A model generated the notes under the pieces. That model saw only the letters and a program-made list of their open reading frames with translations. It was not told where the DNA came from and ran no database searches. Positions 53,543 through 64,000 of a stretch of 64,000 nt of DNA are shown piece by piece. The position numbers were made by a program, and so were the translations under genes. The DNA is from Candidatus Culexmicrobium cathedralense (GTDB lineage Archaea > Thermoproteota > Methanomethylicia > Culexarchaeales > Culexmicrobiaceae). The stretch spans positions 64,001 to 128,000 of the forward strand of contig JANZKC010000003.1 in NCBI GenBank assembly GCA_025061115.1. The letters are read 5' to 3'. How positions within the stretch are numbered: the stretch's first letter is position 1; each line of letters begins with the position of its first letter.

Positions 53543-55606
53543 CTACCGCATCAGAAGGGCATATTGAATGAATAATGGAAGTAACGTTATTGAAACTATG
53601 CTGACGAGCTTAATTAATATGTGCAGGCTTGGCCCAGCACTATCCTTTAACGGATCTCCAACCGTATCCCCAATTACTGCTGCTGCATGTTCTGGCGTTC
53701 CCTTACCCCCTAGAAATCCTGACTCTATTAGTTTTTTGGCGTTGTCCCATGCTCCTCCAGCATTGAACATGAATGTTGCTAGAAGTGCTCCTACAATTGA
53801 CGCTGCAACCATGAATGCTGCTAGTATCCATGGCCCGCCAAGGAAACCTACGATTGCTGGAGTTACTAATCCAACCAGTGTTGGCAGAATCATCTTTTCC
53901 AATGCATGCTTTGTGCTTATGTCTACGCATTGCGCGTAGTTAGGCTTCGCTTCGCCTTCAAGAATGCCGGGTATTTCTCTAAATTGCCTCCTAACTTCTT
54001 CAACCATTTCGTGGGCAGCTTTGCTTACAGCTCTGATTATCATGGCTGAGAATATGAATGGAATGGTTGCACCTGTTAGGAAACCTGCGATTGAGAGTGG
54101 GTTTACCACGTTTACTACGATGTCATTAATTGAATTAAGTTCGATGCCAGCATACCTTGCTGCTTCACTTACGTAGGCAAATAGTATTACAACTGTCGTT
54201 AGAATTCCAGCGGCCATAGCGAAGCCCTTCGTTATGGCTTTAGTTATGTTGCCCACGGCGTCGAGCTTGTCCATGGCTTCTTCAACTTCCCTTTCTAAGT
54301 GGGACATTTCGGCTATTCCTGCTGCATTATCTACTATTGGTCCGTAAGTGTCCGATGCCATTATTATTCCTTTCATTTCGGTTAGACCCATGGCTGCTGC
54401 TGCAACTCCAAATATTCCTAATATGTCTCCGCCGAAAATGAGGTATGCAGCTGCTATTGAAAGTGCGACTATTGTCATTGACGGAACTGCGCTTTCAAGA
54501 CCATAAGCCAATCCTATCATGATGTTTACTGCGGGGCTTGATTTGGATGCTAATGCGATGTCTTTTACTGGCTGCCAACTTTCACTAGTATAGTATTGCG
54601 TGACTATAGCTACTACTAGTGCAGTTACCAGTCCAAGCGTTAAGCAGTAGAATAGTCTTATGTCTCTCATGAAGTAAACTGAGACGCAGTAGAATACTAT
54701 TAATGATAGTACGCCTGCAGTTAAGTAGGCAAAGTTTATGCGGTTTATTGGCTTCATCCCGCCCGTAAATCGTATGGCTGCTATACCTGCTATTGTCGCT
54801 AAATTTCCTGTTGACCTTATTAGGAGTGGAAATACAACTGCTTTCCAGCCGTAGACGGGTAGGAATGTCAGTCCTAAAATCATCATGCACACTAGGTTGT
54901 CCGAGCCTGATTCGAATAGATCTGCTCCTCTTCCGGCGCAGTCACCGACGTTATCCCCAACTAAGTCAGCTATGACTGCTGGGTTTCTTGGATCGTCTTC
55001 CGGTATTCCTATTTCAACTTTACCGACAAGATCTGCTCCAACGTCTGCTGCTTTAGTGAATATTCCTCCGCCTACTTGGGCGAAGAGTGCAGTTAAGCTT
55101 GCTCCAAAGCCGAATCCTACTAGTTCGCTTACGACTTCTGGATTGTGGGGGCCGCCTCCGAATATTACGTAAAGCATTGTTACGCCTATTAGGTTTAATG
55201 ACACGATTAATAGGCCAGTTATCCCTCCGCCTCCGAATGCTAAAGTTAAAGCTCTGCGCACTGATGATCTTGCAGCGTTGGTAACTCTGACATTTGTTTT
55301 AACTGCAGCTTTCATTCCTATGTACGTGGCTATCCCTGAGAACAGTGAGCCTAACATGAAGCCGACAGCTATTTCATGTCTCGGCCATAATGCCACTAAT
55401 AGGGTTACTGCTATTGGTACGGAGAAGTATGCTATTGTTTTGAATTCTCGCTTGAGAAAGGCGTTTGCGCCTTCTTCAATATATCCTGCAATTTCTCTCA
55501 TTTTTGGAGTTCCTGTATCTTCTTTTGTAATTGAGTAGTATATTATTGCAACTACTAGCAGTGATAATGCTCCTACACCTAGAGGTATTAGTAGTAGCAC
55601 GTCCAT
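53543..55606 (-). CDS. hppA: membrane-bound K+-independent H+-translocating pyrophosphatase
   Basis: [45 protein letters not shown] (Lys signature) and [10 protein letters not shown]. Confidence 0.93.
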
Positions 55607-55747: not shown

Positions 55748-57022
55748 ATGGGCGAAATACCCATTACCTACGCCAAGGACACTGTCGTTAGCTTTAGTGA
55801 GGAGGAGAAGCTGTTCAGAGAGGTTGTGAGAGAATTTTGCCAAAGGTATGTAGCTCCTAAGTGGGTTGAAATCGATGAAAAAGCTAGTAAAGATCCTATG
55901 GATATTCCTATTGACTTAATAAAAAAGATGGGGGAGCAAGGTCTCTTCGCAATTCCCTGCGACCCAAAATATGGCGGTCAAGGTGGAACATATACAATGG
56001 CTGTAATTGCAGTTGAAGAGATAGCATATGCTGATCCATCAGTTGCAATAGCTGTTTATGCTCTTCTAAATAACGGTTGGCCATTTGCCCTTCAACAATT
56101 TGGTAGAGAAGATGTTTGCGAGGAGATAATTCCAGAAGTGGCGAAGGGAAATGCGTTTTTCGGTATAGCAACAACTGAGCCTCAAGGAGGATCTGACATT
56201 GCTGGAATGAAAATGACTGCCGTAAAGAAGAATGGCGTATACGTATTTGATGGTGAAAAAGCATACATAAGTGGTGTTGGAGAAGTTATGAAATTACCTT
56301 GGGGTGGAGGGTGGTTCCTAGTAGCTAGAACCGGAGGACCTGGGCACAGAGGGCTATCGGCCTTCGCATTTATACCTAGAAAGAATGGGAAGGAGAGGCC
56401 TGGCTTTCACCCAACCATATACCCTGACATAGGAAGGCACGGACTTACAACAGGTGGCTTTATATGCGAAAACTTTGAGTTAGAAGAAAAATACCTACTT
56501 GGAGAGGAAAATAGAGGTTTCTATCACGTCATGGAAGGCTTCAATCTAGCTAGAATCGTTGTTGCAGCTGCATGCATAGGAGCAACCCGGTGGCTTCTAG
56601 AGCAAGCTGCCCAGTGGTTTAGGCAAAGAAGGCTTTTTGGAGGTAGATACATATCATCATTTCAGGGCATTAACTTCAAATTTGCCGAGCTCTACGCTCG
56701 TTATGAAGCTGCTAAGTACTTTGTCTACAGAGCTGCGAGGCTTGCTGATAAAATATACGTTGAAAGAGATCCAACTTTAAATCCTAAGGATCTAAACGTG
56801 CCAGTGGCAATGGCAAAAATGTGGGCTCCTGAAACTGCAGTTGATGTTGCTGAAGAAGTTATGAAGTGGCATGGAGCTTTCGCATATACCAAGGAGTGCC
56901 CAGTATATCGTGCTTGGCTTGGACTATTTTCATACGTCATTGGAGCCGAAGGAGCGCAAAACATTATGAGGTACATAATCGCCAGGGACACGATTGGCAG
57001 CGAATACGTTAGGCCATCATGA
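55748..57022 (+). CDS. acyl-CoA dehydrogenase
   Basis: TTEPQGGSD, GEKAYIS, FNLARI, FQGINFKFA, MAK and GAEGAQNIMR. Confidence 0.92.
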   Translation: MGEIPITYAKDTVVSFSEEEKLFREVVREFCQRYVAPKWVEIDEKASKDPMDIPIDLIKKMGEQGLFAIPCDPKYGGQGGTYTMAVIAVEEIAYADPSVAIAVYALLNNGWPFALQQFGREDVCEEIIPEVAKGNAFFGIATTEPQGGSDIAGMKMTAVKKNGVYVFDGEKAYISGVGEVMKLPWGGGWFLVARTGGPGHRGLSAFAFIPRKNGKERPGFHPTIYPDIGRHGLTTGGFICENFELEEKYLLGEENRGFYHVMEGFNLARIVVAAACIGATRWLLEQAAQWFRQRRLFGGRYISSFQGINFKFAELYARYEAAKYFVYRAARLADKIYVERDPTLNPKDLNVPVAMAKMWAPETAVDVAEEVMKWHGAFAYTKECPVYRAWLGLFSYVIGAEGAQNIMRYIIARDTIGSEYVRPS

Positions 57023-57159
57023 CCTTAAATTTTTATTTTACTGCATTATTTCTTATAAATCTGAACATTCGAATTTCGTAAATTTTTTAAATTCTTGAAG
57101 TATTAGATATTATTCTAAGTGTCGTATAGGAATAAAAGTCTATAAAGGGAGGATTCAAG

Positions 57160-57952
57160 TTGCACGCTGCAGCGATCTTGATTGATGAAATTATAAGGGA
57201 GGGAAGAGGCTCAAGCCTAGTAATACTAATAATGGCGGCAGTATTCTTCTACATTGCATACTACTTGACAAAGATAGGAAGGCCTCCTAGGCTAAGAAGG
57301 TTGGTTGCAATTGTTGCAATAGCTGAAGCTGTTGGAAGAGCTGCCGAGATGGGGAAGCCCGTTCATTACACTCCCGGATACGCTTATGAGAGTATAGCCA
57401 CCCATTAAGGATCGCAAACATTAGCTTCAATAAGCATTTTAGGCTATATTGGCCAGCTTTGCGCTCGATATGATGTGTCAATAATAATTAACAATTCCAC
57501 TGATGGAGGAGACTCTTAGACTAGCTTACTTAAGGGAAGGTAAGCCTGAAAAATTTGACCCTAAGTGCATTAACTATCAGCCGGGGCAATCTCCAATGGT
57601 AACTGCAATTCTAGGGACATTTCAGAGGGAAAGGCCTGCAGCAAACTTCATGATTGGAGGATTGTACTACGAATCGGTGGTTATAGGAGAAGCAGCTAAC
57701 TTCATTGGAGCAATGCAGGTGGGCGGCACTGCAAATACCCACCAAATGCCATTTATCGTTGCGACATGCGACTACGTGCTGCTAGGCGAAGAGCTTTACG
57801 CTGCTGCAGCCTACATATCTAAAGAACCAATACAAATAGCGAGCATTGCAGGAGAAAATTGGATAAAGTTCCTACTTCTAGCCCTAGTTGTCTTGGGAAT
57901 AATCTTGGAGTCAGCAGGATACCCCCTAATAAGCGATTTCCTGAGGTGGTGA
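57160..57952 (+). pseudogene. DUF6754-like membrane protein, interrupted
   Basis: EAVGRAAEMGKPVHYTPG, then in-frame TAA 57406-08, then GSQTLASISILGYIGQLCARYDV in the same frame. Frame shifts at about 57488-57502 into TIPLMEETLRLAY...AANFMIG...ATCDYVLLGEELYAAAAYIS. Confidence 0.8.
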
Positions 57953-57956
57953 GATT

Positions 57957-58604
57957 ATGGCAACTGTGTTTAGAAGGGCTGAGATACTAATTTTAATTTC
58001 AGGAATGTTGACGGGATTAATTCTATTCGACTACTTCTTTCCAGTCCCAGGGCTGTCAGATGCAGTTGGCGTAGTCAATACATGGGCGGCGGGAGTATCA
58101 GCATTTGCACTTGCTTTAGGCTTCCTATCTGCAGCGAGAATTCACCTATACTACATTCAAAGGAGAATTCCTGGTAGGTGGCCATTCAGCCTGTGGCTAT
58201 TCATATTGACTGCAGTTCTAACCGTTTCAGGGCTCATTAGCGAAGGATCGCTGCCATATGCTTGGTGCTTTAAATGGGTTTTCACGCCTCTTGGTGCAAC
58301 TCTATACGCCATAACGGGATTCTACATATTCTCAGCAGCTTATAGGGCATTTAGAGCTAGAAGCTTAGAGGCTGGAATTCTATTAGTAGCTGGAATTATA
58401 GTGATGCTCGGCAATACGACTATTGGTGAATTAATTTGGAATCAAATACCAATTATCAACGAGTGGCTTCAATTAACTGGCCAAACTCCTGCAATGAGAG
58501 CTCTTCTATTCACGGCATCACTAGGATTAGTCATCTTCGGATTTAGAGTGCTAATTGGAGCAGAAAGGGGCTATTTAGGCGTATCTGGCGAGGGGGGAAG
58601 CTAG
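57957..58604 (+). CDS. multi-pass membrane protein of unknown function
   Basis: About six TM helices, FYIFSAAYRAFRARS and GAERGYLG; starts 4 bp after the previous gene with GAGGTGG RBS. Confidence 0.85.
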   Translation: MATVFRRAEILILISGMLTGLILFDYFFPVPGLSDAVGVVNTWAAGVSAFALALGFLSAARIHLYYIQRRIPGRWPFSLWLFILTAVLTVSGLISEGSLPYAWCFKWVFTPLGATLYAITGFYIFSAAYRAFRARSLEAGILLVAGIIVMLGNTTIGELIWNQIPIINEWLQLTGQTPAMRALLFTASLGLVIFGFRVLIGAERGYLGVSGEGGS

Positions 58605-59474
58605 ATGGCCGAAAAAAGCATTTGGATCAAGCTGGGCGAATTGGATAGAAGAATTCTATACTGGGCTTTAGTAATTGTTCTAGCAGTACTCTTCATTCAT
58701 CCATTGCTTCTGCCAGTTTCAATCTCTGAAACTACCATTTCACTTTACAACTTCATTGAATAATTAGGTCCAGATGACGTTGTAATAATAGGAATTCAAG
58801 CTGGAGTAAGCGCGTGGCCCGAAGTGCTTCCGGGACTAGTAGTAGTTTCAAAACACCTCATTCAAAGGGGTGCCAAGATAATATATTGGGGATTCTCTAT
58901 CGACGTTGACATGACAATGAACGCAATAAAAGCTAGAGTACCGCAACTTAAAGGTCCAAACGAGGCGGCTGGACCTGGGGACTACAAGTATGGTGAAGAC
59001 TGGGTATACTGCGGGCTTCTGCCTCCAGGAGAAGCCACAGTAGCTCAGTTAGCCGACAACATTCATTCCATAATAAAGTATGACAAGTATAGTATACCCG
59101 TTGAGGAATTGCCATTACTACAACGAGTTAAAAGCGCAAAGGATGTTTCATTAGTAATAACCTCAGACACTGGCGATTATGGTGATTATTACATCAGGCA
59201 TTGGAATGCAAGATACAATACTCCAATAGCTGAAGTTGGAATAGCAATGATTTACTCGAGCTACATGACGTACTATCAAACAGGTCAAGTGATAGGCCTG
59301 CTTAAAGGTTGCAGAGGTGGAGCAGAATACGAGAGGCTGACAGGTGCAATAGGAGAGGGAACACGGAGAATGGATGCGCTTAATGCATCTCACTTACTAA
59401 CGATCTTCGCAGTTATAATTGCCAATCTAAGCTATTTCGCTACAAAGAAATCTAGGAGTGGAGGTGGATCGTAA
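58605..59474 (+). pseudogene. membrane-anchored protein with soluble domain, interrupted by one nonsense codon
   Basis: ATG 58605 abuts the upstream TAG. MAEKSIWIKLGELDRRILYWALVIVLAVLFIHP...LYNFIE*LGPDDVV is in frame with track ORF 58824; TAA at 58761-63. Also YGEDWVYCG and GLLKGCRGGAEYE. Confidence 0.8.
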
Positions 59475-60116
59475 ATGCCCTACCCAACTGAGCCTTTAGA
59501 ATTACTCGGCGCGTGGACAGGAGCTTTATTGACCGTAATGGTCTACAGCTACGTGCTTTATAGAGAAAATGTAGCTTTCAGATTTGCCGAGCACACGTAC
59601 ATCGCAACTTCATTTGCAGTTGCAATAGTGCAAGCTGTTAGGCTTATCAAGAATAACATAATCATCCCATTAAGCAAAGGTGAAGCAATATACATCGTTC
59701 CAGTAATTTTAGGCTTCATGCTATACACGCTGCCCTTCAGGCGCTACAGGTGGATAAGCCGCTATCTAGCAGCCTTCCTAGTTGGCGTAGGTTTAGGATT
59801 ATCAATAAGAGGAACATTAACTGCGCAAATCGTTATGCAAATTCTTGGCTCAATATCAGCGCCAGGTGCAGGTGCAACACCTCTAGATTGGTTCAACTTC
59901 CTTTGGATAGCTCTAGGCTTCGTACTCATAACCATGTACTTCACCTTCACAGTAGAGCATGCCGGTCTGTACTACTATCCTACGAAGCTTGGGAGATACT
60001 TGCTAATGCTGGGCTTAGGCGTATACTTCGGCAATACAGTTCAATTCAGAATGGCAATGCTATCAGGCAGAATTCAGTACTTACTGCAAGTATTCAAAAT
60101 AATTCCATGGCCGTAA
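59475..60116 (+). CDS. multi-pass membrane protein of unknown function
   Basis: About six TM helices, YRENVAFRFAEH, YFTFT, GVYFGNTV and GRIQYL; abuts the upstream stop, GGAGGTGG RBS. Confidence 0.85.
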   Translation: MPYPTEPLELLGAWTGALLTVMVYSYVLYRENVAFRFAEHTYIATSFAVAIVQAVRLIKNNIIIPLSKGEAIYIVPVILGFMLYTLPFRRYRWISRYLAAFLVGVGLGLSIRGTLTAQIVMQILGSISAPGAGATPLDWFNFLWIALGFVLITMYFTFTVEHAGLYYYPTKLGRYLLMLGLGVYFGNTVQFRMAMLSGRIQYLLQVFKIIPWP

Positions 60117-60290
60117 ACAACCTAAATTTTCTACATCAATTTTTACTTACTAGAAATACTTATAATTTAAAATAAATTCAATTCCATAATTAGTCACTTA
60201 TGTGCATTTAAAAGTAAATTTAAAGTGCTTCTCAGAAAATTTAAATCGCTTAACATTAAATTAGAAGTGTATTACTTGGAGGCTTAAGAT

Positions 60291-60809
60291 TTGGCGGAGG
60301 CAGTTACTGTCCTTACAAAAATTGCTCAGCTAGAATTATTGAGAAGATTACTGAAAGTTCCAGGTGATCAAAATCCCCTCAGTTGCATGCAATGTGGAAA
60401 GTGCACTAGTGGATGCACAATAATGGTTTTACTTGAAAATTATCCTCATAGAGTTGTTGATAGAGTTAGGCTAGGCTTAATTGAAGACTTATTAAAATCA
60501 GATGTAATTTGGGCTTGTACTCAGTGTTTAAAGTGCAAGGAAGCTTGTCCCCAGAAGGTTTCACCAATGGAAGTTTTCCTAGCTCTCAGAAATCTAGCTA
60601 TATCTGGAGGTGCAAGTCTCCCTGAATCCTACATGAAAATGCTGGCGACAGCCATTGAAACAGGTTTCATTCAAGAGCCCCTTGAAGTTGTTGGGAGAGA
60701 TGGAAAATCCTATAAGAGAGAGGACCTAGGCCTCCCACCGATAAGCGGCCCGAAAAAACTGGATGTTTTCCAGTTAACAATTATGAAGGCGTTTGAGAAA
60801 AGTCCATGA
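60291..60809 (+). CDS. hdrC: heterodisulfide reductase subunit C-like
   Basis: CMQCGKCTSGC and WACTQCLKCKEACP; GGAGG RBS. Confidence 0.9.
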   Translation: MAEAVTVLTKIAQLELLRRLLKVPGDQNPLSCMQCGKCTSGCTIMVLLENYPHRVVDRVRLGLIEDLLKSDVIWACTQCLKCKEACPQKVSPMEVFLALRNLAISGGASLPESYMKMLATAIETGFIQEPLEVVGRDGKSYKREDLGLPPISGPKKLDVFQLTIMKAFEKSP

Positions 60810-60819
60810 GGTGGCGCAT

Positions 60820-61701
60820 GTGAAGTATGTTATCTATCCAGGATGTCTTACATTGACCGAGCAGTACGCTTATGAGCTATCCACTAGAAGAGTTTTTGAA
60901 GCTCTTGGAATAGAGCTACTAACTCCAGAAAACATCTCCTGCTGCGGTGCTCCTCTCAGGAGTGTAAACGCGTATGGCTGGATCTATCTTGCAGCTAGGA
61001 ATATGGCAGTCTTAGAGGATGAGGAAGCTCCAGCCATGATATTGTGCAACTGGTGCCATCTTTCATTTACTCATGCAAGAAAGCTTCTAAGTGAAAAGGA
61101 AGAACTTAGATTGTGGGTTAATGAGTTGTTAAAAGAGGAGGACTTGGAGTATAGGGGTGATTTAGAATTTAAGCATCTCGTAGAAGTGCTTCACGATGAC
61201 ATAGGCATTAAAGTAATTGCTGAATCAGTCAAAGTTAAACTTGAAAGCCTAACTTTATCACCGCATTCAGGTTGTCAATTAATAAGGCCAACTGAATTGG
61301 GGAGGCCCGACAACTCAGTTAATCCAGTAAAGCTATCAAATCTCATAGAAGCACTTGGAGCTAAAGCCGTAAGGCACGTTGGAGAGCTAGAGTGCTGTGG
61401 GTGGGCTATATATAAGACTAGAGTGGATGCTGGACTAACCCTAGCTGGCAATAGAATTAAAGCAGCTTCAGACGCCAAGGTTGATGGAATGATTGTTGTA
61501 TGCCCGCATGGAGCTGAAATGCTTGATGGAATGCAGAGTGAAGCTGGGAAGGCTATTGGATCAAAGTTGGAATTACCAGTACTCTACTACACGCAGTTAT
61601 TGGGATTAGCGCTAGGCATAGAGCCGAAAGAACTTGGATTGCAACTAAATCGATCTCCTGTTGAAAGAATTTTGGAAAGAATATCCATTAACTCTAGTTG
61701 A
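60820..61701 (+). CDS. hdrB: heterodisulfide reductase subunit B-like
   Basis: Two CCG domains (YPGC..CCG..CNWC; HSGC..CCG..CPHG) and LPVLYYTQLLGLALG. GTG 60820 follows GAGGTG. Confidence 0.9.
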   Translation: MKYVIYPGCLTLTEQYAYELSTRRVFEALGIELLTPENISCCGAPLRSVNAYGWIYLAARNMAVLEDEEAPAMILCNWCHLSFTHARKLLSEKEELRLWVNELLKEEDLEYRGDLEFKHLVEVLHDDIGIKVIAESVKVKLESLTLSPHSGCQLIRPTELGRPDNSVNPVKLSNLIEALGAKAVRHVGELECCGWAIYKTRVDAGLTLAGNRIKAASDAKVDGMIVVCPHGAEMLDGMQSEAGKAIGSKLELPVLYYTQLLGLALGIEPKELGLQLNRSPVERILERISINSS

Positions 61702-61752
61702 TTTAACTTATAAGTGATTTACAATTTCTCTTCATAATATTTTGGCTTAGCG

Positions 61753-63015
61753 TCATTTATTCTTAATTGTCGGAACAAGAAGAGCCGCATCATCAATTAT
61801 AAGTATCTTTGCATCCCTTCCTTTCTCCTTCAAGGCTTCGCTCACTGCTTTTTGCAAGTTACTGCATGGCTTAATGAATATTTTTCTTAATAAATCTTGA
61901 TTCATCGATGTGTAAGCCCAGAGTTCAGCCCAAGAAAGTAGATTTGCTAATCTAGCAGCTTTATGATAACCTAAACGGTAATTATCCTTCACTTTCTCAA
62001 AGACTTCCTGAGGCGAATTAGAGCTTGAAAGCAGATCGTAAAAGTTTCTTGGTCCAATACCTTCCCTACACTCTGCAACTAGAATTAATATTCCGCCTTT
62101 CTTGAGAGCCATTTTTGCGTGCTCAACCGCCTTATGCGCTTGATATAAGCTAATGTCGAGTGGAGGTCTAGCAACTGCAATTACTATGTCAGCTTTCTCC
62201 TCTAATTCAATGCAGTGTACTTTAATTGAAGCTTTTACTGACAGCTCAAATGCGTCTTTTACGTGTCCAGAGCATGAGAAGCAAATTCTTCTCTCTGCAT
62301 CTAAAACTGTCATAATAGTGAATATATCGTTGAATCTAGATAACAGCTCTAGAGCATCCATCATATCTTCATGAACTGGATTTCCATCTAAAGATAATAG
62401 TTGAGCTTTCTCATCCAAGGCGTACATGTGATTATGCTCGATTGTCTCATACCCAGCTACGCCGGGGATAAGGAACTTTCTTCCGCCTGTAAACCCTGCA
62501 AAGTAGTGAGGCTCCACAGAACCAGTAACAATTATCCCATCGGATTGCAGAATCAAGTTATTAACGTATACATCGGTGTCGTAGCTTGTGGTTCCAATAA
62601 AAGTTAAATTGCTTTTTTCTCGGCAATTATGAATCTTAATGTGTTTTCTCAAAGAATTATAAAACTCGCCTAAAATATTATTTAGCTCCAGCTCGGTGGG
62701 AGGTCTATGTGCTCCACTTGCAACGAGAATCGTAATTTCTCGGCTTTTCAAGTATGGGTAAATTGACTTTAATATCTTGGCTGTTGGCGTAGGCCTCTCA
62801 TGATCGTTTATAATCATTGTAACTTTCTCCCTTTCCTCAAGAAATGATGACAAATGCTCAAAGTTCACTGGATTTTTAACTGCAGCTTTAAGTAGTTTGC
62901 TTTCACTTTCAACTTTCAAATATTTTGGCTTTAGTAATTCAATCATGTTTTCTCTGGGTATCTCAATGTTTATAGTGGAAGAACTGTAAGGAATTCTAAT
63001 CTTCATTTTAATCAC
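61753..63015 (-). CDS. larA: nickel-pincer-dependent lactate racemase (LarA) family protein
   Basis: DHERPTP, ASGAHR, HNC, HYFAGFTGGRK, LYQAHK and ECREG. Confidence 0.85.
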   Translation of the reverse strand: MIKMKIRIPYSSSTINIEIPRENMIELLKPKYLKVESESKLLKAAVKNPVNFEHLSSFLEEREKVTMIINDHERPTPTAKILKSIYPYLKSREITILVASGAHRPPTELELNNILGEFYNSLRKHIKIHNCREKSNLTFIGTTSYDTDVYVNNLILQSDGIIVTGSVEPHYFAGFTGGRKFLIPGVAGYETIEHNHMYALDEKAQLLSLDGNPVHEDMMDALELLSRFNDIFTIMTVLDAERRICFSCSGHVKDAFELSVKASIKVHCIELEEKADIVIAVARPPLDISLYQAHKAVEHAKMALKKGGILILVAECREGIGPRNFYDLLSSSNSPQEVFEKVKDNYRLGYHKAARLANLLSWAELWAYTSMNQDLLRKIFIKPCSNLQKAVSEALKEKGRDAKILIIDDAALLVPTIKNK

Positions 63016-63025
63016 TTTTTGTTAA

Positions 63026-64000
63026 TTAATCACTTTTTGTTAATAGTGCTTTAACTGCTGCTACTATGGATTCATCAGAAAATTGTTTTTGCTTGATTGC
63101 TCCGGAGGGGCATGCTGCTGCGCAAACTCCGCATCCTCTACATAATGCAATGTCAAGTTTAGCTACTCCTTCATCAACGTCTATTTCAATAGCTTTGAAG
63201 GGACATGCTGCTGCGCATATTCCGCAACCACTGCACTTTGATTCGTCAATTTCAACCGTAAATGGTTCAATTTCAACTTCGCCTGGAGCTAGTAGAGCTA
63301 TTGCTGCTGCAGCTGCGCCTGCTGCTTGAGCTACGCTATCTGGGATATCCTTTAATCCTTGAGCGCACCCGCAAATGAAAACTCCAGTTACCGCTGTTTC
63401 AACTGGTTTAAGCTTTGGGTGGAGTTCAAGAAGGAAGCCATCTGAACTTCTAGGTAGTTTGAGAAGTGAAATTATTTTTTCAGAATTTGCATTTGGTACT
63501 AATCCGGTTTCTAAAACAACTAGGTCAACTGCGAATCTATATAGCTCATTCGCGTTGATGTCAAAAACGTCAAAAGTTACTTTTCCATTTTCCTCTTTTA
63601 TCTCCATAGGTTTGCCTTTGACTAGGTAGACGTTCTCCATTGACCTAATTCGCCGATAGAATTCTTCAAATCCTTTTCCAGCAGCTCTAATGTCCGTGTA
63701 GAATACGTATACCTTGGAGTTTGGGAGCGATGAAGCTATGTAGTACGCATGCTTCAGTCCAGCCATGCAGCCGACTTTACAGCAATAATTCAAATGTCTT
63801 TCGTCTCTAGAGCCAGCGCAGAGTATTATTGCAACTGACTTTGGAGGTTTTCCTGTTGAAGGGCGTATTATTTTTCCTCTTGTTGGGCCTTCAGCTGATG
63901 AAAGCCTTTCTAACTCCATTCCAGTTATTACGTCTCTAATTTTGCCATAACCATATTCCTCAAGTCGCTTAGGATCGTAGATTTCATATCCAGTTGCAAT
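63026..64000 (-). CDS. hdrA: heterodisulfide reductase subunit A-like (5' part beyond window)
   Basis: Frame is open to the window edge (IATGYEIYDPKRLEEYGYG). CAGSRD..YCCKVGC, YTDIRAAGK, GVFICGCAQG.KDI and two C-terminal ferredoxin motifs. Confidence 0.93.
   Translation of the reverse strand: MATGYEIYDPKRLEEYGYGKIRDVITGMELERLSSAEGPTRGKIIRPSTGKPPKSVAIILCAGSRDERHLNYCCKVGCMAGLKHAYYIASSLPNSKVYVFYTDIRAAGKGFEEFYRRIRSMENVYLVKGKPMEIKEENGKVTFDVFDINANELYRFAVDLVVLETGLVPNANSEKIISLLKLPRSSDGFLLELHPKLKPVETAVTGVFICGCAQGLKDIPDSVAQAAGAAAAAIALLAPGEVEIEPFTVEIDESKCSGCGICAAACPFKAIEIDVDEGVAKLDIALCRGCGVCAAACPSGAIKQKQFSDESIVAAVKALLTKSD

Follow-up and report, generated by a model that had tools for sequence, protein, structure and literature searches.

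What do four tightly coupled genes for membrane proteins do, and does the copy at hand still do it? These questions are raised by positions 57160-60116 of a 64,000-nucleotide stretch of DNA from Candidatus Culexmicrobium cathedralense (contig JANZKC010000003.1). This whole stretch is called the window hereafter, and coordinates without a label are positions in it; the labels L, G and X stand for loci, genomes (G000 being the genome of the window) and sequencing runs, respectively. The four genes lie on the plus strand with intergenic gaps of 4, 0 and 0 bp. A reading made from the sequence alone (the sequence-only reading) had described them as a four-gene membrane complex in a DUF6754-like operon and as the best candidate for a novel system in the window. 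The reading frames agree with it on the coupling of the genes, gene 1 indeed matches Pfam DUF6754, in three pieces, and all five motifs that it quoted, EAVGRAAEMG, SAAYRAFRAR, GGAEYE and FRFAEH included, are present and fall on conserved alignment columns.

Our analysis revealed that the four genes are a conserved membrane unit found in Archaea and many bacterial phyla. The only catalogued element of the four-protein family is the Pfam domain of unknown function DUF6754 (PF20539), which the pieces of gene 1 in the window match. The Pfam entry describes the gene 1 protein alone and assigns it no role, and its member in the window is a pseudogene: the copy of the unit in the window is a decaying paralogue that is unable to make whole gene 1 or gene 3 products. 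The view of this copy as a working novel system was thus not upheld.

Spread, order and anatomy of the four-gene cassette

The unit is strongly conserved, with 2149 DUF6754 representatives at 50% identity (full scan) and an estimated 4800 or so stretches with DUF6754 (pattern scan, one genome per species), yet it has no known function or solved structure, and the literature searched gave no paper on it. Gene 2 has 1196 homologues, none bearing a functional name that stands up, and a word search returned 42 homologues of gene 4. All counts over 80 loci given here refer to the best 80 loci of the pattern scan, which came from Bathyarchaeota, Symbiobacterium, other Bacillota, Ignavibacteria, Zixibacteria, Eisenbacteria, Sumerlaeota, Coatesbacteria, WOR-3 and Calditrichaeota. 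Profiles for genes 2, 3 and 4, built from our own alignments and run against all open reading frames (ORFs) of these DUF6754 loci, detected gene 2 in 79 of them, against 77 for gene 3 and 76 for gene 4. The order 1-2-3-4 on one strand was seen in 80/80 loci and the complete cassette in 76/80; the four incomplete loci (L045, L074, L076 and L091) stop at a contig or locus end. More than one cassette was present in ten loci, tandem triples included, and genes 2 and 3 were split by other DNA in two (L067 and L069). The same adjacency, strand and order were found in the window and in the three paralogues of its own genome. The co-occurrence of the four families elsewhere, on which the sequence-only reading had made its proposal depend, is thereby established. 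Among the genomes sampled from the phylum of an Ignavibacteria metagenome-assembled genome (MAG; L029), DUF6754 was present in 121/121, with 2-6 matches each.

Some bacterial and archaeal loci carry recurrent neighbours. A protein of about 290 amino acids (aa) with a DUF483 match directly follows gene 4 in three Bathyarchaeota loci (L020:5521-6393, L021:9067-9924 and L023:9032-9892) and may be a lineage-specific fifth gene. A gene for enzyme I of the phosphotransferase system (PTS), with N-terminal, mobile and C-terminal PEP-utilizers domains, precedes the cassette together with a bact-PGI_C gene in an Ignavibacteria MAG, a Zixibacteria MAG and an unclassified bacterial MAG (L067, L069 and L093, respectively), and a nucleotidyl transferase gene follows the cassette in L067, L077, L088, L090 and L093.

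In the genome of the window, three further cassettes are intact, with all four genes at full length and in the order 1-2-3-4; they share 27-54% amino-acid identity with the copy in the window. DUF6754 was found in 11/41 related genomes, all of them from the order of the window and with 2-8 matches each, and a profile search found it in 0/30 genomes from other families of the class. Every paralogue and orthologue matches DUF6754, with E values of 1e-62 to 1e-91. Intact orthologues of the copy in the window, with 64-69% nucleotide identity, occur in six relatives (G003-G005 and G008-G010); the orthologue search gave partial matches in G001, G006 and G007 and fragments only in G002. The closest named homologues are from Methanomethylicia MAGs, and neighbourhoods elsewhere in the genome, with ribosomal protein S25e, deoxyhypusine synthase and HerA, are archaeal.

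The surroundings of the orthologues are partly conserved. An acyl-CoA dehydrogenase gene lies directly upstream of the orthologous cassette in 4/4 relatives whose sequence reaches so far (L015, L016, L017 and L018), and an HdrC-like gene lies 3' of it in L015 too, its place being taken by another gene in L018 and L019. The neighbours of the paralogues vary: genes for a biotin carboxyl carrier protein (BCCP) and a PYC_OADA carboxyltransferase at one, a creatininase-family gene and a pyridoxal phosphate (PLP) enzyme at another, and ThiDN and BacA at the third. The link between PYC_OADA and the cassette is kept in three genomes of the family (G000, and also G002 and G004). In the window's own genome this cassette (L011, G000:C3:138000-157000) lies about 22 kb past the end of the window, intact and directly after the biotin carrier and PYC_OADA carboxyltransferase genes; a fused CT_C_D/CT_A_B protein, an S-Me-THD-like gene and an Asp/Glu/hydantoin racemase gene lie near it.

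Searches of known families gave little for the proteins themselves. Genes 2, 3 and 4 of the window matched no Pfam or NCBIfam family and gene 1 matched only DUF6754; among 54 members each, the gene 2 and gene 4 families showed no consistent Pfam family. An ArsP_1 permease match on gene 4 of one paralogue (E 2.3e-4) was seen in 1/54 family members and was discarded as chance. Sequence searches of the PDB with the four family profiles, and with the companion ATPase and its partner described below, returned nothing significant, the best value for the gene 1 profile being E 0.31. ESM Atlas searches with a DUF6754 paralogue and gene 2 returned only their own clusters, unnamed or DUF6754, without structure. 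The absence of a match to a characterised transporter, which the sequence-only reading had also put at stake, thus holds for genes 2-4 in Pfam, NCBIfam and the PDB, and for gene 1 apart from DUF6754.

AlphaFold2 models of the intact G005 orthologues of gene 1 (pLDDT 93.9, pTM 0.88) and gene 3 (pLDDT 91.3, pTM 0.86) both predict a transmembrane (TM) helix, a six-stranded alpha/beta domain of Rossmann-like type and a second TM helix, in keeping with the architecture proposed earlier for these two genes. Such a three-layer alpha/beta/alpha domain on TM helices is reminiscent of transhydrogenase dIII, of the RCK/KTN domains of Trk/Ktr/MthK and of sirtuin-like folds. VIA-align placed 151 chains at Z >=8 for the gene 1 model, GT-B halves, RCK/KTN domains and transhydrogenase dIII among them; the best was sirtuin 4 (5ojn_A, Z 10.2, root-mean-square deviation 4.0 over 146 residues), with RCK domains at 9.3-9.5 and transhydrogenase 4j16_C at 9.1. 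For the gene 3 model, 13 chains reached Z >=8, with 1kjn_B (Z 9.1) as the best and the TrkA-type 3l4b_A at 8.5. In contrast to a family match, identity to these Rossmann-like domains is 5-14%, and Foldseek found nothing in the PDB at E 0.001 or better for either model. The matches of the gene 1 model show a common, generic Rossmann-like fold only.

The modelled soluble domains of genes 1 and 3 share their order of secondary structure and some PDB matches (1kjn_B: Z 9.5 and 9.1, respectively). Homology was not detected by hhalign, whose probability was 0.3% for the pair of genes 1 and 3 and 0.7% for the pair of genes 2 and 4, so the 'pseudo-symmetric 2+2' layout proposed earlier lacks sequence support. 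The two domains also seem to lie on opposite sides of the membrane, as the bias of charged residues and the domain fusions suggest. Lysine plus arginine, counted over 12 residues, averages 3.45 after TM1 of gene 1 against 0.94 before it, and because of this bias the DUF6754 domain is placed in the cytoplasm with both termini outside. In gene 3 the corresponding means rise from 0.91 before TM2 to 3.07 behind it and fall from 1.5 before TM1 to 0.59 behind it, so that its alpha/beta domain probably faces outward. Among 24 long DUF6754 proteins, six carry PKD domains, three PQQ-type beta-propellers, one fn3 and one He_PIG, and 12 have no added Pfam domain; one of the 24 has a sub-threshold CBM_6 match. 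The added domains stand before TM1, some behind a signal peptide, or after TM2 of DUF6754.

By hydropathy profile alone, genes 2 and 4 show 5-6 weakly to moderately hydrophobic segments. Invariant residues are R130, R135 and E203 in gene 2 and R199 in gene 4; conservation is 90% or higher for E39, R96 and H162 of gene 4. Since the gene order is fixed and stops overlap with starts, the four proteins likely form one hetero-oligomeric complex. A complex prediction for the four subunits, made from orthologue alignments with gene 1 as partner, scored 0.78, against 0.73 for a control in which chain 3 was replaced, and so speaks neither for nor against such a complex.

Decay of the copy in the window

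Alignment with the intact orthologues of five related genomes placed three lesions in the window. Gene 1 has a premature TAA at 57406-57408, where the orthologues have glutamine, and a 17-nucleotide deletion after 57491 that shifts the frame and removes about six codons relative to the orthologues. The third lesion is a single in-frame TAA in gene 3 (58761-58763), at a codon for lysine, glycine or threonine in the orthologues. The three pieces of gene 1 jointly span positions 9-253 of the 257 in the DUF6754 profile, in order and with gaps at the two lesions, and owing to the TAA and the deletion there is no uninterrupted reading frame across the domain. Fragments a and b pass the PF20539 gathering score of 27 bits (39.2 and 152.4 bits, respectively), the middle piece alone falls below it (14.5 bits), and in the whole-genome DUF6754 search the copy in the window scored 156.4 and 55 bits. 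Only gene 2 (215 aa) and gene 4 (213 aa) are whole in the window.

Public contigs aligned to 57100-60150 came from metagenome runs of four studies (X1-X4) and revealed two haplotypes of the locus, about 99% identical (about 1.2% of bases differ). Contigs of X1, the likely source run (depth 62), equal the window over all 3051 bases and so contain all three lesions. X3 belongs to a different study; one of its contigs matches the window letter for letter at 57468-57623 and contains the deletion, the only lesion that it covers. None of the seven runs found was listed as an RNA data set. Assembly error as the cause of the lesions was ruled out by these X1 contigs and by the deletion shared with X3. 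The X2 contig differs from the window in 36 letters and has none of its three lesions, reading C at 57406 (CAA), A at 58761 and 17 extra letters behind 57491. X4 covers only the first stop among the lesions and reads C at 57406, hence without that stop. X2 and X4 share an extra G after 59091 that truncates gene 3, and a sister-strain protein (P0144, 166 aa) agrees with it, having lysine at the gene 3 stop of the window and then an early end. Because the sister haplotype lacks the stop of the window and has its own frameshift, gene 3 was broken independently in two co-existing haplotypes.

The differences listed between the haplotypes number 35, with 20 non-synonymous (two of them stop codons) and 15 synonymous. 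The ratio of non-synonymous to synonymous polymorphism (pN/pS) is about 0.42, a value that is suggestive only, as it stands without a neighbouring-gene control. The haplotype of the window has also lost conserved residues. D244 of gene 1, invariant in 62 family sequences, is Asn in the window (57857: AAT, against GAT in the sister); P29 of gene 3 TM1, 96% conserved, is Leu (58690; P in the sister); and the conserved Asp of the 'AIDAI' motif of gene 1 is likewise replaced. The assembly is 99.99% complete with 7.65% contamination in 25 contigs, and this contamination leaves the finding unaffected because the contig of the window (263 kb) shares its gene order with relatives.

That the copy still works, by readthrough or recoding of the stops, bypass of the frameshift or split subunits, is very hard to credit. 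In its favour, neither gene 2 nor gene 4 is damaged and the fragments can still be aligned well with orthologues; there is also an ATG at 57503, close to the start of fragment b, and gene 3 has a 216-aa frame that starts with a GTG at 58824. Set against this, genes 3 and 4 of the same operon normally end in TAA, for which reason recoding of the stop codon was rejected as unlikely; the frameshift is a 17-nucleotide deletion relative to the sister haplotype, not a slippery site; and split subunits would cut the first beta-alpha units of both domains. The replacement of invariant D244 and conserved P29, and the independent break of gene 3 in the sister haplotype, also argue against a working copy. 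The window thus holds a natural experiment, in which the orthologue group linked to acyl-CoA dehydrogenase is being lost independently in two co-existing haplotypes with three paralogues left intact. Individual cassettes are therefore dispensable, and they probably differ in specificity.

Companion ATPase and candidate functions

The sequence-only reading had found no ATPase in the operon. This is correct for the operon itself and does not hold for the family, which travels with a separately encoded, long GlmL-like ATPase of the ASKHA type. When the flanking ORFs were scanned, two to either side of each cassette (265 ORFs, 77 loci), PF13941 ('MutL', the GlmL family of ASKHA ATPases) was beside the cassette in 11/77 loci, upstream in six, where it is accompanied by a protein of 375-389 aa, and downstream in five. 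L026, from a MAG named as the cultured species Symbiobacterium thermophilum, is a locus with the ATPase gene next to the cassette. This partner protein shows weak matches to RnfC_N, NqrA_N or biotin-lipoyl barrel-sandwich domains. Its RnfC_N and NqrA_N matches reach E 4.9e-8 at best and are mostly under the cut-off, with 20.4 and 19.8 bits in G000 and 33.4 bits in L081; comparison with NqrA in the PDB gave E 0.63-1.1 only. Transmembrane segments were looked for in the ATPase and the partner, and none were found.

The distribution of the ATPase follows that of the cassette in several samples, each made of related genomes that are not independent observations. Among the 41 relatives, PF13941 scored above the cut-off in 10 (G000 and G002-G010), all within the 11 DUF6754 carriers, and in 0/30 others; the one DUF6754 carrier without it (G001) is 57% complete. 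Each positive relative has exactly one copy of about 620 aa, against 2-8 DUF6754 matches. The genome of the window is among them, and its ATPase corresponds to L106:6206-8059, a protein of 618 aa with a 389-aa partner. The PF13941 ATPase is also present in 5/5 diverse cassette genomes and in 119/121 genomes from the phylum of the Ignavibacteria MAG, where it is almost always single-copy. Among 151 genomes sampled from the phylum of a Symbiobacterium MAG (L025), DUF6754 occurs in 10 and PF13941 in 60. Here the matches were divided, by score and length and after the list had been viewed, into an ordinary GlmL-like class (at least 435 bits, frames of 443-568 aa and one of 695 aa) and a long class (319-431 bits, frames of 584-736 aa). 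The long form was found in 9/10 DUF6754 genomes against 0/141 others, the tenth (G140) having a partial DUF6754 match only.

GlmL/MutL, the accessory protein of methylaspartate/glutamate mutase (PF13941, NF040745), is relevant to the companion ATPase only, which matches PF13941 from end to end (E 2e-120). Unlike GlmL, the companion is about 160 aa longer, is paired with a protein of about 390 aa, co-occurs with DUF6754 cassettes and stays far under the NCBIfam equivalog cut-offs: 213.6 bits against 475 (NF040745, GlmL), 216.5 against 600 (NF040744, ornithine Or-4) and 154 against 204 (TIGR01319, glmL_fam). Longer PF13941 frames were seen as well, of about 1240 aa in G121, G157 and G160, without DUF6754, from the phylum of the Symbiobacterium MAG, and of about 930-980 aa as second copies in G212, G279, G282, G299, G302 and G310 from the phylum of the Ignavibacteria MAG.

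For the function of the cassettes we tentatively favour a role as substrate-specific import modules that share one ATPase. Each cassette would be a hetero-oligomeric module for its own substrate: the alpha/beta domain of gene 3 would act outside as a tethered binding domain, genes 2 and 4 would form the membrane pathway, and the cytoplasmic Rossmann-like domain of gene 1 would couple the module to the soluble ATPase pair. In many bacteria, the outward termini of gene 1 would bear extra binding domains. The ATPase pair would be common to the several cassettes of a genome, in the manner of the energising module of energy-coupling factor (ECF) transporters that serves many S-components. Loss of the copy in the window would then be loss of one substrate specificity, and the lost substrate may be related to the acyl-CoA dehydrogenase kept upstream of this orthologue group.

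This reading is favoured because the cassettes occur in many diverged copies (up to 11 DUF6754 matches per genome) with varied and partly catabolic neighbours, because of the TonB-dependent receptors downstream of the cassette in four diderm loci, because of the outward domain and the fusions, and because of the single ATPase. Genes for peptidases, amidohydrolases or amidases flank the cassette in 16/77 loci and PLP enzymes do so in four more. The loss of the copy in the window while three are intact also fits modules of differing specificity. ECF transporters share an EcfAA'T module, and MsiK-type importers of the ATP-binding cassette (ABC) class share one ATPase; this served as the working analogy. 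The likeness lies in the one cytoplasmic ATPase gene against 2-8 diverged membrane modules per genome, placed beside varied catabolic genes, and the sharing of an ATPase would resemble ECF transporters in logic only. ABC_tran, ABC membrane domains, EcfT and S-components were not found at E <=0.1 in the proteins of the window nor at E <=0.05 in 54 gene 2 and 54 gene 4 members, except for a chance TMD0_ABC match in 1/54. In contrast to ECF and ABC systems, the companion ATPase belongs to the ASKHA (GlmL-like) fold family and not to the P-loop ATPases, and the module has four subunits, two of them with Rossmann-like domains. The more specific proposal, that the cassettes are interchangeable modules of an unrecognised class of primary-active importers powered by a shared actin-fold, GlmL-like ATPase and its barrel-sandwich partner, is possible and on present evidence rather unlikely.

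Several observations weigh against import. A search of a limited literature collection found neither transport or binding experiments nor papers naming DUF6754, PF20539 or PF13941, and similarity to known transporter families was not detected in the Pfam, NCBIfam and PDB searches. No ASKHA ATPase is known to drive a transporter. The soluble domains give generic Rossmann-like matches only (Z 10.2 and Z 9.1), the count of peptidase and amidohydrolase neighbours stands without a background rate, and the outward orientation of the gene 3 domain is suggested by charge bias only. Neighbours in bacteria of the FCB type are housekeeping genes (PtsI, PGI and nucleotidyl transferase), and the presence of DUF6754 in every sampled genome from the phylum of the Ignavibacteria MAG would suit a core machine better than an accessory importer. 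Two genomes from the phylum of the Symbiobacterium MAG (G041 and G120) each have four long ATPases against one cassette; where ATPases outnumber cassettes, the ATPase has other partners or is no dedicated energiser. Finally, the co-occurrence among the relatives amounts to one evolutionary event because these genomes are not independent.

The main rival to shared-ATPase import modules is a cell-envelope machine, in which the cassette and the ASKHA ATPase would export, assemble, anchor or remodel a surface structure and the outward domains would hold an extracellular partner. FtsA, PilM and MreB are ASKHA proteins that act in envelope machines. The fusion of DUF6754 to PKD, beta-propeller, fn3 and Ig-like domains in 11/24 long forms is consistent with such a role, as are the universal presence and near-constant copy number in one phylum sample (121/121) and neighbours such as nucleotidyl transferases (five loci), a GT2 glycosyltransferase, bactofilin and large Big_1/invasin-like proteins. 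We nevertheless consider it unlikely, since the cassette is alike in archaea, monoderm bacteria and diderm bacteria despite their differing envelopes, since up to 11 diverged DUF6754 matches occur in one genome and beside catabolic enzymes, and since the decay of one copy with three intact is a better fit to interchangeable specificity modules.

An ion-translocating, energy-converting complex, coupled to a cytoplasmic redox or decarboxylation reaction as in transhydrogenase, Rnf/Nqr and the Na+-pumping decarboxylases, is improbable in our judgement. The polytopic subunits do have conserved Arg, Glu and His residues, the fold matches include transhydrogenase dIII (Z 9.1) and sirtuin-like NAD folds (Z 10.2), and the partner of the ATPase has the weak RnfC_N/NqrA_N matches already given; one paralogue directly follows BCCP and PYC_OADA genes in three genomes of the family, and the copy in the window lies between acyl-CoA dehydrogenase and HdrCB-like genes. 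Against these stand the Pfam and NCBIfam scans, in which Fe-S, flavin, heme and NAD families were unmatched (an NAD motif was not sought by eye), the lack of an Rnf/Nqr match in genes 2 and 4 (54 members each) or of an OAD_beta match in them, and the generic nature of fold matches that extend to 151 chains at Z >=8. Many diverged copies with variable neighbours would be unusual for a bioenergetic complex, and the gene 3 domain appears to face outward. More improbable still is a transmembrane sensor or signal transducer, whose outward domain would sense a ligand and whose cytoplasmic Rossmann-like domain would relay the signal. It would explain one domain on each side of the membrane and the variable domains fused outside, and response regulators, methyl-accepting chemotaxis proteins or a sigma-54 activator lie within two genes of the cassette in 5/77 loci. 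Such regulatory neighbours are rare at this count, however, a known signalling output domain was not matched in Pfam or NCBIfam, and four conserved subunits with about 16 TM helices go far beyond the needs of a sensor.

Should an actin-fold ATPase drive the cassettes, be it for transport or as an envelope machine, they would be a new kind of membrane system and would fill a gap in how the metabolism of uncultured anaerobes is modelled, for example in Bathyarchaeia, Methanomethylicia, Zixibacteria and Ignavibacteria. As importers powered by that shared ATPase, they would add an architecture for ATP-driven uptake beside ABC and ECF transporters, one that spans Archaea and many bacterial phyla and reaches every genome of at least one phylum sample.

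Layout of the locus and neighbouring genes

The positions of the features in the window and of the related genes elsewhere in its genome are collected in the table. Both the AT-rich region and the ribosome-binding sites described by the sequence-only reading were found: GC content is 0.38 around the spacer (windows 56750-57499) against 0.44-0.45 within the genes, the spacer is presumed to be the promoter region, and a Shine-Dalgarno-like GGAGG or GAGGTG run precedes every one of the four starts. The flanking genes had also been named correctly as acyl-CoA dehydrogenase and hdrCB, as Pfam matches show, the latter pair being HdrC/HdrB-like.

Table. Features of the cassette locus in the window and related genes elsewhere in the same genome (G000; C1 and C3 are contigs).
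Feature	Position	Strand	Evidence or remark
Acyl-CoA dehydrogenase, 424 aa, upstream neighbour	55748..57022	+	Pfam Acyl-CoA_dh_N/M/1
AT-rich spacer, about 138 bp	57023..57159	+	Shine-Dalgarno-like GGGAGG 8 nt ahead of the TTG start
Gene 1 (DUF6754), fragment a: TM1 and first conserved helix	57160..57408	+	PF20539 E 5.6e-10, profile 9-69
Gene 1, middle piece in the frame of fragment a, still alignable to orthologues	57409..57491	+	PF20539 75-98, E 0.02
Gene 1, fragment b in the +1 frame: remaining Rossmann-like domain and TM2	57491..57952	+	PF20539 E 1.6e-44, 111-253
Gene 2, intact polytopic membrane protein, 215 aa	57957..58604	+	Invariant SAAYRAFRAR motif, invariant C-terminal Glu
Gene 3, TM, alpha/beta domain and TM, interrupted by TAA	58605..59474	+	Translation, orthologue alignment
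Gene 4, intact polytopic membrane protein, 213 aa	59475..60116	+	FRFAEH and EH motifs, conserved Arg residues
HdrC-like 4Fe-4S protein and HdrB-like CCG-domain protein, outside the cassette	60291..61701	+	Pfam Fer4_17/Fer4_8, CCG
Intact paralogous cassettes	C3:146419-149367; C1:65117-62269; C1:444721-441801	as the coordinates run	Profile/sequence search
Long GlmL-like ATPase	C1:243583-245007	-	Open frame of 627 aa without stops

Further genes of the surroundings were noted. On the minus strand at 53543-55606, divergent from and upstream of the acyl-CoA dehydrogenase gene, lies a membrane H+-translocating pyrophosphatase of 687 aa (PF03030, E 2.8e-233). The region from 60291 to 64000 forms a redox gene cluster that begins with the HdrC-like and HdrB-like genes on the plus strand. 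Beside these, on the minus strand, are a gene of the LarA (lactate racemase) family with Lar_N and LarA_C domains at 61753-63015 and, at 63026-64000, a gene that is open-ended, has a 2x[4Fe-4S] domain at its C-terminus and appears HdrA-like by eye.

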